Both the position numbers and the translations under genes were made by a program. The notes beneath the pieces were generated by a model, which worked only from the letters and a program-made list of their open reading frames with translations, ran no database searches and was not told the origin of the DNA. This document shows, one piece after another, positions 3,203 to 21,926 of a stretch of 50,795 nt of DNA (within the stretch, counting starts at the first letter, position 1; each line of letters begins with the position of its first letter). The DNA is from a virus. The stretch lies in the UHGV virus genome UHGV-0203461. One strand, 5' to 3'.

Positions 3203-3589
3203 TTATTCTTCATCTTCTTGCAAACTTCTTAACCATTTTTCAAGCGCATCTATTTTATCAATACTTACCTCTTCTTTATCATGTAATTTTGATATTAACT
3301 GTGATAAAGGATTATTATGTAAACCTCCAAATAGTTTTTTAGTTTCTGATTTTAAGTATTCTTTTTCTTTTATTAATATTGTATAATGTGTGTGTTTACC
3401 TATTTTTTGAGAAGCTAAAAAACCTCTTTTAGTTAACCTTAATAAAAGTGTTAGTGTTGTAGTTTGTTTCCATTTATATATTTTTTCCATTTCATCTGCC
3501 ACATCTTTTGATATTACAGTTTTATAACCAGTATTCCATATGTATTTCATAATCTTGAACTCTGAATCTGGTAATTTTTTATTTAGCAT
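3203..3589 (-). CDS. BlaI/MecI/CopY-family winged-helix transcriptional repressor (orphan, no BlaR1 sensor)
   Basis: 128 aa. It aligns over its full length to the penicillinase-repressor pattern (SEFKIMKYIW...TTLTLLLRLTKRGFL...YTIL...). Confidence 0.65.
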   Translation of the reverse strand: MLNKKLPDSEFKIMKYIWNTGYKTVISKDVADEMEKIYKWKQTTTLTLLLRLTKRGFLASQKIGKHTHYTILIKEKEYLKSETKKLFGGLHNNPLSQLISKLHDKEEVSIDKIDALEKWLRSLQEDEE

Positions 3590-3628: not shown

Positions 3629-3910
3629 TTATTTTTTTCCTAGTTTCTGCATACTTTCTATAAATACTTTTATTTGTTTCTCTGTCTTTTCTTCTTTTTT
3701 ATGTATAGTTGTAAATACTTGTGTAAAAAAATTATCATATTTACTTACATCTTTTTCTTCTTTTATTACATCTAAATATTCTTTTTTAGTTACTAATACT
3801 TCATAGTTTAATTGAAAACCAACTCTCTTCTTTTTTAATATTCTCATTTTTACTAATCTTCCAAGTAAAATCTCTGTAGTGCTTTTTCTCCACTTATACT
3901 TTTCTTTCAT
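3629..3910 (-). CDS. second BlaI-like paralog, N-terminally truncated or degenerate
   Basis: 93 aa. It is homologous to the C-terminal two-thirds of the neighbouring BlaI-like protein (YKWRKSTTEILLGRLVKMRILKKKRVGFQLNYEVLVTKKEYL against YKWKQTTTLTLLLRLTKRGFL...YTILIKEKEYL). The upstream in-frame extension has no start codon. Confidence 0.4.
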   Translation of the reverse strand: MKEKYKWRKSTTEILLGRLVKMRILKKKRVGFQLNYEVLVTKKEYLDVIKEEKDVSKYDNFFTQVFTTIHKKEEKTEKQIKVFIESMQKLGKK

Positions 3911-4439
3911 TGCTACTTCTATTTCTTTTTTAGATAGAGTAGACTTTTCCCTTCACATGTACTCCATCAACATTAATTCGCCCCTGCGTAATTTACTTTC
4001 TACCTCTTGTCGCTCCATTTATGTCACTTCCTTAATTCGTCTAACTTAAATTAATAATAGGAGCTTTTTAGAACAAAAACTATAGGTAATTTTTACCAAA
4101 TATTCTACTGTTTTAGTTTGTTTTCTTAGAAGAAAAATAACTTTCATATCTATAAAATTATTCAACTTTCAAACTATCCTGTTGAATAATAACTAATTCT
4201 ATTGTATTATTTTAGTTGTAGAATAAAACTAAATCGGCAAAACTAGAGAAATTTAGTGGCATAAATATATATGAACTAAGAATTGTAAAATGAGTTATAA
4301 GTTATATCATCCAGTTATCAAAAACATATACTCTTTTTGTTTTTGTGAAAGTTTTTTAGGTGGCTAATAATATATATACTTAGAGATAAAATAAAATATA
4401 TTTCTAATATTCATAGTTTTATTTTTTCTCAAAATGCGA

Positions 4440-4595
4440 TATAATAAAGATGTAAATTCGTATCAAAAACAAAAAAAGAAACTACAATCTATTAGCCTAG
4501 AGTGAAGTTTCATTAACTAAATATTAATGTCGTTTTTTATTAAACTTGATTTTTACATCAAGCTCAAAGTCACTCCTGCCAGAGTGGCTTTTTAC
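4440..4595 (+). ncRNA. putative antisense antitoxin sRNA of type I TA locus 1 (boundaries approximate)
   Basis: TATAAT -10 box at 4440-4445. The transcript would run antisense into the 3' half of the toxin ORF and stop at the hairpin CACTCCTGCCAGAGTG plus T-run at 4572-4595. The architecture is mirrored at locus 2. Confidence 0.35.
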
Positions 4596-4667
4596 TTTTC
4601 TGGAAATAATATATGTAATAAAGCTAGCTGTTAAACTAGCTAACACTCCTAGTAAAAATTCGCTCAT
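4524..4667 (-). CDS. type I toxin, small membrane peptide, 47 aa (MSEFLLGVLASLTASFITYIISRKVKSHSGRSDFELDVKIKFNKKRH)
   Basis: Absent from the ORF track because it is under 60 aa. RBS GGAAGGAGGTGG. Hydrophobic N-terminal helix with a charged C-tail. Upstream promoter TTGATA-N15-TGTTATAAT at 4758-4784 on the - strand. Paralogous to the peptide at 21445-21606. Confidence 0.6.
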   Translation of the reverse strand: MSEFLLGVLASLTASFITYIISRKVKSHSGRSDFELDVKIKFNKKRH

Positions 4668-4926
4668 TTCTCCACCTCCTTCCTTTTAAGGGATGGAATG
4701 TAGAAAATGAAGCTCCACTCTTAGATTGTAGTTCCACAAGATTATTCTTGCATTTTAATTATAACATAATTTTACAATTATCAAATATCTATTCTTCATA
4801 TTTTTTATTTATACAATATATTCTATATTGCAATAAAAAACATTGTTTTAAATATATATATACATAGGTATATACTAAATATGTTAAACTTAATTATAGA
4901 AAATATAAAATGAAAGGAATAAAAAT

Positions 4927-5115
4927 ATGACTAAGACTATATTATGTGATTACTGTAATAAAGGAATAAACAAAGATGATAATAAGTATATTACTTTTCA
5001 TAAGAAAAGTCATATGAAAACTAACATTTGTATTAATTGTGCATTAAATTTGATAGATAAAGATAAATTAAATGAAAATATTATAAATAATCAACATGGT
5101 TATTCAAAGAAATGA
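4927..5115 (+). CDS. small zinc-ribbon protein (CxxC...CxxC)
   Basis: 62 aa with two Cys pairs. Followed by a hairpin plus T-run near 5310-5340. Confidence 0.3.
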   Translation: MTKTILCDYCNKGINKDDNKYITFHKKSHMKTNICINCALNLIDKDKLNENIINNQHGYSKK

Positions 5116-5709: not shown

Positions 5710-6741
5710 TTAAAAAATAGTACATATATAAGTTGCCACAATTCCACAAATAACATTAATTAAAATCGTTAATGATAAGCTACTTTTTATTCCTTTTTCA
5801 TGTTTTTTGTTTTTGATATCTAACTTCTCTCGTTTTATTTTATCTCCATTCGTTATGTTGAATATGTGAGTGTCACCATACTCATAAATTTCTGTCAAAA
5901 ACTTATTTGATAAAAATTCTCCAATATTTTTTATTACTTTATAAATAAGACTAAAAAGCAATGTAAGCATGATTAATTTTTGTATATGACTTATGCTTAA
6001 CTGAACTAAAGTATCTATATTAAAATGCGACAAATTAAAATTAACTATACTTACCAAAACAATTAAGCCAAAAAGTGGTATGATATTTTCTATAACAGCA
6101 GAAATACCTTTTCTATATTTTCTAATAAATTTCATTGTTTTTCCTGATTCAGAAACTACTTTTTGTATTGATTTATCCCATTCTTCTATTATATTTATTA
6201 ATTCATCACCTAATAGATGATTAGTAAAATCAACTTTGCAAGTAACAGGAGATAAGCTTTTATCTATAGAATCTATTTCTTCTATTTGACCACTTACTAT
6301 GAGCTGTAATATCTGTTGAGGCTTCATTCCTGAAGATAGTCTTATTACTAATGTATGTCTCTGAGGAACCCCATATTCTTTAAAATCAACAAAAAAATCA
6401 TACTTTATAGTTATATTTTCTAAATAGTGGGAGCTAGACCAATTACAATTTTGAAATTCTATCCAATCAGAAAACTCTTTGAAAGTATTGTTATCAAACT
6501 TAACTGATATATTCACTATTAAAGCTGCTACTATATAATGTTGTAATTTTTCCTTTATTTTTTCATGTAAAGAATATAAATCTTTTATTTCTACATTTAC
6601 ATCTCTTGGAAAAATTCTAAGCATACTATCAGGTTTCCCGTTCATTAAATTGAATAGAGCCTTTAATTCTTCATGACTTATTCTTGATACATCAAGATTT
6701 TTTTCATCAATCTCACCATAAACTAATTCTTTATTCATCAT
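5710..6741 (-). CDS. membrane protein with a soluble N-terminal domain and 3-4 C-terminal TM helices; candidate abortive-infection or superinfection-exclusion factor in the conversion region
   Basis: 343 aa. The C-terminal third has strongly hydrophobic segments (IIPLFGLIVLVSIVNF, LIMLTLLFSLIY, LTILINVICGIVATYICTIF). No recognisable catalytic motif. Sits between the endolysin and the integrase. Confidence 0.45.
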   Translation of the reverse strand: MMNKELVYGEIDEKNLDVSRISHEELKALFNLMNGKPDSMLRIFPRDVNVEIKDLYSLHEKIKEKLQHYIVAALIVNISVKFDNNTFKEFSDWIEFQNCNWSSSHYLENITIKYDFFVDFKEYGVPQRHTLVIRLSSGMKPQQILQLIVSGQIEEIDSIDKSLSPVTCKVDFTNHLLGDELINIIEEWDKSIQKVVSESGKTMKFIRKYRKGISAVIENIIPLFGLIVLVSIVNFNLSHFNIDTLVQLSISHIQKLIMLTLLFSLIYKVIKNIGEFLSNKFLTEIYEYGDTHIFNITNGDKIKREKLDIKNKKHEKGIKSSLSLTILINVICGIVATYICTIF

Positions 6742-21257: not shown

Positions 21258-21373
21258 CTTATTTACAATTAAATTTATTCATCTAGTTAGATTCATCATT
21301 ATTTTGTATAAAAAATTTCATCTTTTTATTGACTATAAAAAATATTATAGGCAATATTTTTTCTAATTTGTGG

Positions 21374-21525
21374 TATAATAAAAACAAGAAGAACTACAAT
21401 CTATTTAGCGGTAGAGTGAAGTTCATAATTTTAAAAAATATAAATTATTTAAATTTGCGGAACTTTATTTTAAAACCAAGTTCCCAGCCACTTTTACTCT
21501 TGCCACGAGTAGAGTGGCTTTTTAC
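21374..21525 (+). ncRNA. putative antisense antitoxin sRNA of type I TA locus 2 (boundaries approximate)
   Basis: Extended -10 box TGgTATAAT at 21371-21379. Conserved leader AACTACAATCTATTTAGCGGTAGAGTGAAGTT. Terminator hairpin plus T-run at 21487-21529 inside the toxin ORF. Confidence 0.35.
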
Positions 21526-21606
21526 GTTTTTGATACATCTACAAACGATATATCCAATTAAACTAGCTATCAAGCTAGCTAATATACTAAGTAAAAAATT
21601 GTCCAT
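21445..21606 (-). CDS. type I toxin, small membrane peptide, 53 aa (MDNFLLSILASLIASLIGYIVCRCIKNVKSHSTRGKSKSGWELGFKIKFRKFK)
   Basis: Absent from the ORF track. RBS GGAGGTGG. Paralog of the 47-aa peptide at 4524-4667 (shared xEFLL..LASL.AS.I.YI..R.VKSHS pattern). Extended -10 box TGTTATAAT on the - strand at 21696-21704. Confidence 0.6.
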   Translation of the reverse strand: MDNFLLSILASLIASLIGYIVCRCIKNVKSHSTRGKSKSGWELGFKIKFRKFK

Positions 21607-21926
21607 ACTTCCCACCTCCTTTCATTAGGAAGTAGGTTTTATCCCAGTATGAACTCCACTCTATAAATTGTAGATTACATCTTCTTGCTACAATTATTAT
21701 AACATATAATTCTTACATATTTTACCTATATTTTATCTTCTTCTACTTCTTCTAGCTTCTTTAGCAGTCTTTTTTTCTTCTTTTATTTCTTCTTCTACTT
21801 TAATATCTATAGAAGCAGCAACAAATGCCCTCTCGAAGTCTGGTAAATCTGTATATTCATGTGGTTTCCATTTGAATTTATGAAGGCAATAATGAGCTAC
21901 ACTAGCATCATAATCGCCTCCTTCAA

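Follow-up and report, generated by a model that had tools for sequence, protein, structure and literature searches.

Type I toxin-antitoxin modules of Clostridioides difficile strain 630 include two closely related prophage loci, CD0977.1-RCd11 in phiCD630-1 and CD2889-RCd12 in phiCD630-2. For CD0977.1, toxicity and membrane location (the HA-tagged protein was detected in membranes) were demonstrated and the RNA ends were mapped; its toxicity is neutralized by RCd11 and also, in trans, by RCd12 (PMC7699646). The toxin transcript is 282 nt long, and the antitoxin is made as a long form of 385 nt and a short form of 151 nt (Suppl. Table 1, PMC7699646), the latter from P2, which is the stronger and essential antitoxin promoter in that strain (Peltier et al. 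2020, PMC7699646). The half-life of the CD0977.1 mRNA in strain 630 is 89 min, versus 8 min for RCd11, and the module contributes to phiCD630-1 maintenance (PMC7699646). The evidence for post-segregational killing comes from the joint deletion of four phiCD630-1 toxin genes and not from a single module (PMC7699646). [quoted passage not shown] 2020, PMC7699646).

The sequence analyzed here (the window; 50,795 nucleotides of virus genome UHGV-0203461) is that of a C. difficile temperate phage and is 100% identical between positions 4300 and 4900 to phiC2, phiMMP02, phiCD508, and phiCDHM19. From its sequence, the locus at 4435-4790 very probably belongs to the family of type I toxin-antitoxin modules carried by C. 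difficile prophages and is the CD2889-RCd12 allele, a sister of CD0977.1-RCd11. It lies in the accessory region, with the lysis genes on one side and the integrase on the other. A preliminary description, drawn from the letters of the sequence, had proposed such a module; the call was correct, but the CD2889-RCd12/CD0977.1-RCd11 system is already known and published, and the locus is no discovery. The published CD0977.1-RCd11 primers (PMC7699646) were mapped onto the window by blastn-short, so that RNA ends are given by homology (Table 1).

Table 1. Features of the toxin-antitoxin locus, in window coordinates
Feature	Position	Strand	Basis or detail
Upstream antitoxin promoter P1, TTGAAT-N17-TATTAT, and long-form start	4182..4218	+	Promoter scan
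Degenerate c-di-GMP-I (GEMM-I) aptamer, long antitoxin leader	4226..4311	+	RF01051; alignments A1 and A3
Antitoxin promoter P2, -10 box TATAAT	4440..4445	+	Sequence
Short antitoxin RNA, RCd12 type, 151 nt	4452..4602	+	Published primer matches; start G4452
Toxin mRNA terminator, hairpin 4511-4478 then T-run	4460..4511	-	Read from sequence
Toxin mRNA, ~279 nt (282 nt in strain 630)	4473..4751	-	Ends placed by homology
Toxin gene, 47-aa peptide	4524..4667	-	ATG start; ORF listing; NCBIfam, PHROG, and UniRef matches
Antitoxin intrinsic terminator	4566..4603	+	Inside toxin CDS; terminator scan and fold
5′ UTR hairpin, predicted to mask the Shine-Dalgarno sequence (AGGAGG 4680-4675)	4668..4707	-	MFE structure
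RBS AGGAGG	4680-4675	-	7 nt (TGGAGAA), then ATG at 4667
5′ UTR segment GGAACUACAAUCUAAGAGUGG	4715..4735	-	Predicted pairing with mRNA 3′ end (4478-4493) and CDS 4581-4587
Toxin promoter	4758..4784	-	-35 TTGATA 4784-4779, 15-nt spacer, -10 TATAAT 4763-4758; read from sequence

The 47-aa ORF is present with the sequence previously given, and its ribosome binding site, described as strong, is indeed the consensus AGGAGG, whose placement 7 to 8 nt 5′ of the ATG is expected for the family (PMC7699646). The peptide matched the NCBIfam equivalog model NF047374 ("CD_typeI_toxin") with 82.2 bits against a cutoff of 60 (E = 2.5e-23), the match spanning residues 1 to 46 and profile positions 1 to 51 of 51, which bears out its proposed relation to the C. 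difficile type I toxins. It also matched phrog_738 (E = 2e-20) and is the exact sequence of UniRef Q183X5_CLOD6, a strain 630 protein that we assign to CD2889 and that is present on at least 992 contigs. Compared with CD0977.1 (P0006), 45/47 residues are identical, the differences being L42F and Q46R. The peptide had been called hydrophobic and charged, and both properties were recovered: the Kyte-Doolittle 19-residue maximum is 1.93 (residues 4 to 22), and residues 23 to 47 contain 9 K/R versus 3 D/E. This profile predicts an N-terminal transmembrane helix followed by a basic C-terminal tail, and the peptide has the traits of the family, i.e., fewer than 60 aa, a hydrophobic transmembrane stretch at the N terminus, and a C terminus that is rich in lysine and positively charged. 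Among Pfam-A families, none was matched at E values up to 10, including Hok, Fst, Ldr, and the other type I toxin families.

AT-rich DNA contains many small ORFs (41 of at least 20 aa within 3.5 kb here), and the toxin ORF could in principle be a chance one in noncoding DNA. The evidence for the family refutes this reading: the profile match is strong, and paralogs with 52 to 59% identity, one of which lies in the window, have kept the architecture. The ribosome binding site of the ORF is a consensus one. Together with the detection of the HA-tagged homolog in membranes (PMC7699646), this leaves a chance ORF with virtually no credibility.

The toxin promoter had been given as TTGATA-N15-TGTTATAAT; both hexamers are present, whereas that notation overcounts the spacing by 3, the correct form being N12-TGT-TATAAT. 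The spacer ends in TGT, yielding an extended -10 element (TGnTATAAT), and the promoter was missing from our consensus scan because the scan requires a spacer of 16 to 18 nt. From the -35 element through the transcript start, the promoter is identical to that of the CD0977.1-type allele in L035, where primer T7CD0977.1 matches exactly and which aligns with the window there except for 3 nt of indels. At the other end of the mRNA, primer "CD0977.1 term" is matched in full (30/30) at 4473-4502, and the 3′ end mapped for CD0977.1 corresponds to position 4473, within the T-run.

The toxin mRNA is predicted to fold with -89.5 kcal/mol (z = -7.66 versus shuffled sequence). Its Shine-Dalgarno bases have an unpaired probability of 0 to 0.21, consistent with the ribosome binding site sequestration stated for the toxin family (PMC5961336). 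The GGAACUACAAUCUAAGAGUGG segment would pair through the inverted repeats I4 (12/12) and I2, and these pairings also appear in the MFE and centroid structures; in sense, the segment agrees with the arms of the 5′ hairpin of the antitoxin. This 5′ UTR motif is kept in 17 distinct family loci, among which essentially no covariation could be counted for the 5′-3′ closure of the mRNA, the motifs being almost invariant. Class-level replacement of the anti-Shine-Dalgarno sequence was seen only in the sequestering hairpin.

On the opposite strand, the TATAAT of the proposed convergent promoter was confirmed. P2 has neither a good -35 element nor a TG extension, so its strength is taken from the reporter assays in strain 630. 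Primers JP730 and JP732, which delimit the published P2::phoZ fragment, have exact matches at 4359-4385 and 4436-4460. The boundaries of the short antitoxin are likewise marked by primers "T7RCd11 short" (34/34 at 4452-4485) and "RCd11 term" (24/24 at 4602-4579). The antisense RNA had been predicted to end at a hairpin and T-run inside the toxin coding region, and such a terminator exists: a hairpin at 4566-4591 with 10 pairs, 4 of them G-C, followed by TTTTTACTTTTCT, at about codons 22 to 34 of the toxin's 47. The antitoxin and the toxin mRNA overlap at 4473-4602, i.e., by 130 nt, as in strain 630. The antitoxin region departs from the RCd11-type allele by exactly 3 nt, located at the 3 positions that constitute the published difference between RCd11 and RCd12 (PMC7699646), and the RNA folds with -28.8 kcal/mol (z = -3.45 versus shuffled sequence). 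At the sequence level, the antisense gene has its own promoter, an intrinsic terminator, and a 3′ overlap with the toxin mRNA; the suggested type I layout of C. difficile prophages is upheld, since these elements correspond to those mapped for CD0977.1-RCd11 and CD2889-RCd12 (PMC7699646). Farther upstream, the long antitoxin starts 234 nt before the P2 start, the same spacing as in strain 630, primer "T7RCd11 long" matches partially at 4225-4246, and the P1 region is invariant in alignment A1.

Two + strand ORFs, at 4434-4505 (23 aa) and 4546-4689 (47 aa), were considered as genes and treated as noncoding, as they lack a ribosome binding site. The former begins upstream of the P2 transcription start and, being the one of the two that was scanned, had no NCBIfam match.

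Promoter-like hexamers occur at about the frequency expected by chance in this AT-rich DNA (13 found by the consensus scan versus 11.7 expected) and are therefore no evidence by themselves, whereas terminator-like sites exceed it (4 versus 0.2 expected in the terminator scan). The terminator enrichment, the HMM E-value, the RNA fold z-scores, and the exact matches of published primers are all well beyond chance. The hexamer frequency would suit a reading in which the peptide is a small phage membrane protein of another function, such as a holin-like protein or a lysis regulator, and the promoter and terminator on the antisense strand arose by chance; holin and endolysin genes are located a few kilobases away in phiMMP02. 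We regard this as highly improbable, considering that the peptide has no Pfam holin match and that the sequence of P2, the antitoxin, and the terminator is invariant among phages with diverging flanks. In addition, the antisense RNA was mapped by RACE and Northern blotting at the sequence-identical strain 630 site, and it neutralizes the toxin (PMC7699646).

A search of the whole window against Rfam matched no family at the gathering thresholds. With relaxed thresholds, only subthreshold noise was obtained, except for a weak c-di-GMP-I match; no Rfam match was found for the RCd antitoxin region. The c-di-GMP-I match (RF01051) scored 18 bits with relaxed filters, below the gathering score of 35, while the homologous site scored 69 to 77 bits in phiCD27, phiCD119, CDMH1, phiCD505, and IMG/VR prophage contigs. 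The window aptamer keeps 14/21 consensus pairs, compared with 19 to 21 in 6 of the 7 other aligned aptamer alleles and 16 in the 3′-truncated phiCD418 allele, and 11 otherwise invariant core positions are altered. The cmscan alignment suggested that the structure was kept through compensatory GC-to-AU changes; this proved to be a register shift in the homology-based alignment, where 7/21 pairs are broken. Diversification of the aptamer patch of the DGR type was ruled out because the substitutions are not adenine specific.

A functional c-di-GMP-I riboswitch between P1 and P2, such as controls the long antitoxin form in strain 630 (Cdi1_4/Cdi1_5), was thus not found in the window. The upstream riboswitch of this copy would no longer sense c-di-GMP, leaving control to P2 alone, and, given the degenerate aptamer, the long antitoxin form may be regulated differently than in strain 630. 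The mutated element recurs without change in at least phiC2, phiMMP01, phiMMP02, phiMMP03, phiCDHM19, and phiCD508. It keeps the P2 hairpin and the equivalents of G20 and A47, with U replacing, by homology, the equivalent of C92. On these grounds, it might be a retuned leader that, within this lineage of phages, couples antitoxin supply to another signal, e.g., another cyclic dinucleotide, which is a long shot. More modestly, it can be read as a natural loss-of-riboswitch allele whose toxin-antitoxin module would run on P2 alone. The apparent loss of the riboswitch beside an invariant core agrees with the published dispensability of the riboswitch-driven antitoxin transcript, and this combination may be unreported.

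The allele induced in the published toxicity assays was CD0977.1, not the CD2889 allele (F42, R46) of the window (PMC7699646); by analogy with the 96%-identical CD0977.1-RCd11, the window copy would be expected to behave in the same way. The - strand would then give a stable, tightly folded mRNA of ~279 nt encoding the 47-aa membrane peptide, whose production would arrest growth, and on the + strand the constitutive promoter P2 would drive a separate, labile antisense RNA of ~151 nt. Over the final 130 nt of the toxin mRNA, which comprise the 3′ half of the CDS and the 3′ UTR, the two RNAs are fully complementary; their duplex would prevent synthesis of the toxin and make both RNAs accessible to RNases. 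Upon loss of the phage genome, the short-lived antitoxin would decay first and the long-lived mRNA would yield toxin, such that cells losing the (pro)phage would be penalized by post-segregational killing.

The same module might instead serve mainly in defense (abortive infection or phage exclusion) or in stress or biofilm physiology rather than in maintenance. Abortive infection and persistence are named among the proposed toxin-antitoxin roles (Peltier et al., PMC7699646), co-regulation with CRISPR-Cas by Sigma B has been described (Maikova et al., PMC5961336), and the CD0977.1 mRNA increases ~20-fold in biofilm, with a c-di-GMP link via the riboswitch (PMC7699646); the accessory-region location described above would also fit such roles. 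However, stabilization of the prophage, seen with the four phiCD630-1 toxin genes deleted, is the only tested phenotype, and the c-di-GMP link would be broken in the window. Defense and prophage maintenance are not mutually exclusive, and as the main role we consider the former group of functions unlikely.

Copies of the same toxin peptide occur in 22 phage records and in 4 phage-plasmids, most phiCD119-like phages carry it, and relatives were found in 16 further C. difficile phage records. When the strain 630 allele was sought in IMG/VR with primer OS452, 18 prophage contigs bearing a riboswitch were recovered, but the CD0977.1-specific primers matched none of them; L035, which came from a protein-based search, carries these primer sites. 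The toxin ORF has been annotated in phiMMP02 (gp38) and phiCD508, as a hypothetical protein. The records of phiC2, phiCD119, CDMH1, phiCDHM19, and CD1801 have no feature at the locus, and none annotates the antitoxin RNA. The description of the locus as undetected therefore holds only with respect to a 60-aa ORF cutoff, since the ORF is annotated in two phages, has an NCBIfam model, and is published. The case is a true positive, indicating that type I toxin-antitoxin loci are readable from raw sequence. It adds little to the biology, as publications of 2018 to 2020 already cover the module with its RNAs and toxicity and the part it plays in prophage retention, and an NCBI naming model exists for the family; the practical value lies in the annotation of deposited phage genomes. 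A small new point is that a widespread allele has apparently lost the c-di-GMP riboswitch next to an invariant toxin-antitoxin core.

Beyond C. difficile, BsrG/SR4 and TxpA/RatA of B. subtilis are type I systems of Bacillota with 3′-overlapping antisense RNAs (cited in PMC5961336). The window locus resembles them in its small hydrophobic toxin, the convergent antisense pairing with the mRNA 3′ end, the ribosome binding site sequestered in a structured mRNA, and the prophage location, although the toxins have no sequence homology. The same was concluded for the C. difficile toxins relative to other type I toxins (PMC7699646).

Within C. difficile, CD0956.2-RCd10, CD2907.1-RCd9, and CD2517.1-RCd8 (Maikova et al. 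2018, PMC5961336) belong to the same NCBIfam family and are likewise convergent, the two RNAs overlapping by ~130 nt at the 3′ end; their 5′ UTRs are 83 to 88 nt long, with a sequestered ribosome binding site. The CUACAAU...AGAGUGGAG motif of the 5′ UTR and the 3′ UTR hairpin are also shared. These modules differ in that their toxins are 53 aa long and only 59% identical to the window peptide and in that they adjoin CRISPR arrays in strain 630, whereas no CRISPR array was found in the window; moreover, RCd10 fails to neutralize CD0977.1 (PMC7699646). A second toxin-antitoxin locus of the same phage, at 21445-21606, is a member of this subgroup.

The closest systems are CD2889-RCd12 and CD0977.1-RCd11 themselves, with which the window locus shares the promoters, the ribosome binding site, both terminators, the transcript lengths (151 and ~280 nt), the 130-nt 3′ overlap, and the tandem P1/P2 arrangement with its 234-nt spacing. 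Relative to CD0977.1, the 5′ UTR is 3 nt shorter, and one substitution makes the 5′-3′ helix perfect. Compared with the strain 630 loci, the aptamer between P1 and P2 is mutated in the window, whereas the toxin-antitoxin core is unchanged.

The preliminary description placed a type I toxin-antitoxin locus at 4435-4790, and this reading is supported, the family being described and experimentally characterized. The encoded 47-aa peptide matched the model for C. difficile type I toxins (NCBIfam NF047374, 'CD_typeI_toxin', an equivalog for 'type I toxin-antitoxin system toxin') with 82.2 bits (E = 2.5e-23; curated cut-off, 60 bits) and PHROG 738 at 2e-20; a Pfam search with the peptide returned no match. 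A hydrophobic segment spans residues 4-22 (Kyte-Doolittle 1.93), and the tail holds 9 K/R versus 3 D/E. The ribosome binding site, the convergent promoter, and the terminator within the toxin coding sequence that had been described were all found. The toxin promoter hexamers were also located, separated by 15 nt, the final three being TGT (an extended -10), so that the earlier rendering, N15-TGTTATAAT, counts three nucleotides too many. In the AT-rich stretch around the locus, promoter-like hexamers occur at chance level (13 versus 11.7 expected) and terminator-like sites above it (4 versus 0.2 expected).

Features of the toxin-antitoxin loci in the window
Feature	Position	Strand	Detail
Toxin ORF	4524..4667	-	ATG start; MSEFLLGVLASLTASFITYIISRKVKSHSGRSDFELDVKIKFNKKRH
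Toxin ribosome binding site	4680-4675	-	AGGAGG; ATG 7 nt downstream
Toxin -35 / -10	4784-4779 / 4763-4758	-	TTGATA / TATAAT
Antitoxin promoter P1	4182-4210	+	TTGAAT-N17-TATTAT
Riboswitch site	4226-4311		
Antisense promoter -10	4440-4445	+	TATAAT
Antisense terminator hairpin	4566-4591	+	followed by TTTTTACTTTTCT
'T7RCd11 short'	4452-4485		34/34; sets antitoxin start G4452, 6 nt past -10
'RCd11 term'	4602-4579		24/24; sets antitoxin 3' end
'CD0977.1 term'	4473-4502		30/30; sets toxin mRNA 3' end
JP730, JP732 (P2 reporter bounds)	4359-4385, 4436-4460		exact; P2 fragment
OS578, OS579, OS657, OS660 (Northern, RACE primers)			exact; same locus
Antitoxin, predicted by homology	4452-4602	+	151 nt
Toxin mRNA, predicted by homology	about 4751-4473	-	about 279 nt
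Antitoxin/toxin mRNA overlap, predicted by homology	4473-4602		130 nt
Paralogous module	21370-21690		
Paralogous toxin	21445-21606	-	53 aa; MDNFLLSILASL...
Paralogous antisense -10 box	near 21370-21378	+	TGGTATAAT
Paralogous antisense terminator	near 21485-21535	+	

The identical 47-aa sequence is present on at least 992 contigs of the protein collection, and its UniRef representative, Q183X5_CLOD6, is a strain 630 protein. The cluster also contains P0006, likewise from strain 630, whose terminal residues ...KIKLNKKQH agree with the C-terminus that primer JP326, used for HA tagging, encodes. Although JP326 and JP363 are labelled 'CD2517.1' in the primer table, both match the CD0977.1/CD2889-type locus: JP363 aligns at 31/31 in the window, and both are exact in the CD0977.1-type allele L035, an IMG/VR locus. 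By elimination, the window peptide would be CD2889, the phiCD630-2 copy; L42F and Q46R distinguish it from CD0977.1.

The RNA ends were mapped by aligning the primer table of Peltier et al. (2020; PMC7699646) to the window with blastn-short. Every CD0977.1-specific primer is exact in L035, whose alignment to the window spans the toxin -35 to beyond P2. The two alleles differ in the antitoxin by three substitutions (GTG to GTA, CTT to TTT, and CAA to CGA), the same number as between the published RCd11 and RCd12; these give both amino-acid changes and one silent change. In the toxin 5′UTR they differ by indels totalling 3 nt and by two substitutions (one, C to U, inside the AACUACAAUC motif and the other, A to G, immediately 5′ of it). 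Because the published primers and the L035 alignment match, the RNA ends and the overlap can be predicted for the window.

In strain 630, a c-di-GMP-I riboswitch lies within the P1 leader (PMC7699646). The homologous site in the window scored 18 bits against RF01051 (gathering score, 35), versus 69-77 bits in phiCD27, phiCD119, CDMH1, phiCD505, and 17 IMG/VR prophage contigs. In alignments of the leader and locus (A1, A3), the aptamer is unchanged over its initial 33 nt, which include the GAAA-capped hairpin; approximately 20 substitutions are concentrated in the following ∼75 nt, and the P2 region, antitoxin, coding sequence, and toxin promoter are nearly without changes. Eleven core positions invariant in all intact alleles are altered (GACGCAAAGC to GGCATAAATA, GGGAC to TGAAC, CAGCC to CATCC, and GTTGCC to GTTATC). 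When the Rfam consensus structure was threaded by homology, the window kept 14 of 21 pairs, compared to 16 in the 3′-truncated phiCD418 allele and 19-21 in the remaining six alleles aligned, and the aptamer fold is no longer formed in the predicted window leader. The degenerate allele is identical (86/86) in phiC2, phiMMP01, phiMMP02, phiMMP03, phiCDHM19, and phiCD508. Because its boundaries are sharp, the mutated patch points to recombination rather than gradual decay. Within the degenerate leader (4182-4362), P1 is kept intact, and its distance from P2 is unchanged at 234 nt. The degeneracy fits the published dispensability of the riboswitch-driven transcript (PMC7699646); no mention of the degenerate allele was found in a literature search. 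phiCD418 shows a third riboswitch state (L028, 636-725), scoring 37.2 bits, which slightly exceeds the gathering score: two thirds of the element, counted from the 5′ end, are preserved, a recombination breakpoint has put other sequence in place of the 3′ end, and a CD2889-type toxin-antitoxin module is absent downstream.

For the antitoxin, the predicted fold (-28.8 kcal/mol, z = -3.45) comprises a 5′ hairpin at 4478-4511, a further two small ones, and the terminator. In the predicted toxin mRNA fold (-89.5 kcal/mol, z = -7.66), the Shine-Dalgarno (SD) sequence is paired within a hairpin at 4707-4668, and the 5′UTR segment 4735-4715 pairs with the mRNA 3′ end, including a perfect 12-bp match (4733-4722 with 4491-4480). 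Across 17 distinct family loci (the window and IMG/VR loci), 14-35 base pairs link the 45 nt at the 5′ end to the 45 nt at the 3′ end in all predicted mRNAs. Among the 13 distinct mRNAs folded for this comparison, SD bases were mostly paired, except in L005. Each of three toxin classes has its own anti-SD sequence; sequestration of the ribosome binding site is already described for this toxin family (PMC5961336). The near-invariant 5′UTR motif CUACAAU(C/U)UA...AGAGUGGAG is complementary to the toxin 3′UTR terminator (4715-4735 versus 4478-4493). Since the motif and the antitoxin 5′ hairpin arms are of the same sense, the 5′UTR and the antitoxin would compete for one 3′UTR segment. Such competition may be related to the published remark that, in vitro, antitoxin is bound by no more than part of the CD0977.1 mRNA owing to its tight folding (PMC7699646). 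The 5′-3′ closure is beyond a covariation test because the motifs are nearly invariant across the 17 loci, leaving essentially no signal to count.

The window overall is a mosaic myovirus without its own record in the phage collection; its best match, CDMH1, shows 93% identity across 75% of the first 25 kb. Positions 4300-4900 are 100% identical to the C. difficile phages phiC2, phiMMP02, phiCD508, and phiCDHM19; some ten further phages match there with 96-99% identity. The toxin ORF is annotated 'hypothetical protein' in phiMMP02 (gp38) and phiCD508 and lacks annotation in phiC2, phiCD119, CDMH1, and phiCDHM19. It is flanked by two BlaI/CopY-like repressor genes and the integrase on one side and by the lysis module on the other. 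The adjacent repressor genes ('Penicillinase_R' type; 3203-3589 and 3629-3910, - strand) include one, 3629-3910, that matches the profile over positions 28-113 alone and seems to lack its N-terminal part. Past about 4900, the window diverges from phiMMP02 and phiCD508, beyond a common 62-aa gene (4927-5115); a 343-aa ORF at 5710-6741 (- strand), hydrophobic in its C-terminal part, had no Pfam match.

The identical peptide occurs in 22 phage records and four C. difficile phage-plasmids, and relatives with 52-57% identity occur in 16 more C. difficile phage records and six more plasmid records (four C. difficile and two other Clostridioides isolates); all phage and plasmid matches come from Clostridioides. 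L022 (phiMMP01), L003-L006, L011, L012, L017, and L020 carry DNA-unrelated toxin coding cores within a common frame, consisting of the P1-riboswitch-P2 leader, the toxin promoter and 5′UTR motif, and ∼60 nt at the start of the antitoxin. The module resembles a cassette in which the frame is kept and the toxin variant swapped. A second type I module is present in the window, with a paralogous toxin (NF047374, 78.8 bits) and a convergent antisense gene that resembles the published RCd10 sequence and is RCd9/RCd10-like. CRISPR arrays adjoin that subgroup in strain 630; Rfam found no CRISPR repeat in the window.

To a known system, the window adds two minor points: the degenerate riboswitch allele and, as a prediction, self-closure of the toxin mRNA. 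CD2889-RCd12 is a duplicate of CD0977.1-RCd11, both toxins being 47 aa; inducing CD0977.1 stops growth, and its tagged product is recovered with the membrane fraction (PMC7699646). RCd11 is driven by two tandem promoters: P1, with the riboswitch, yields 385-nt read-through and 143-nt terminated forms, and P2, which is stronger and sufficient, yields a 151-nt form, P1 being dispensable (PMC7699646). The toxin mRNA is 282 nt long and has a half-life of 89 min, versus 8 min for the antitoxin (PMC7699646). CD0977.1 is neutralized by RCd12, despite three positions that differ from RCd11, and not by RCd10 (PMC7699646). Deleting four phiCD630-1 toxin genes reduced prophage retention after excision, and a rescan of all available C. 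difficile phage genomes found toxin homologues in each (PMC7699646). The locus in the window is an allele for which strain 630 already provides a name.
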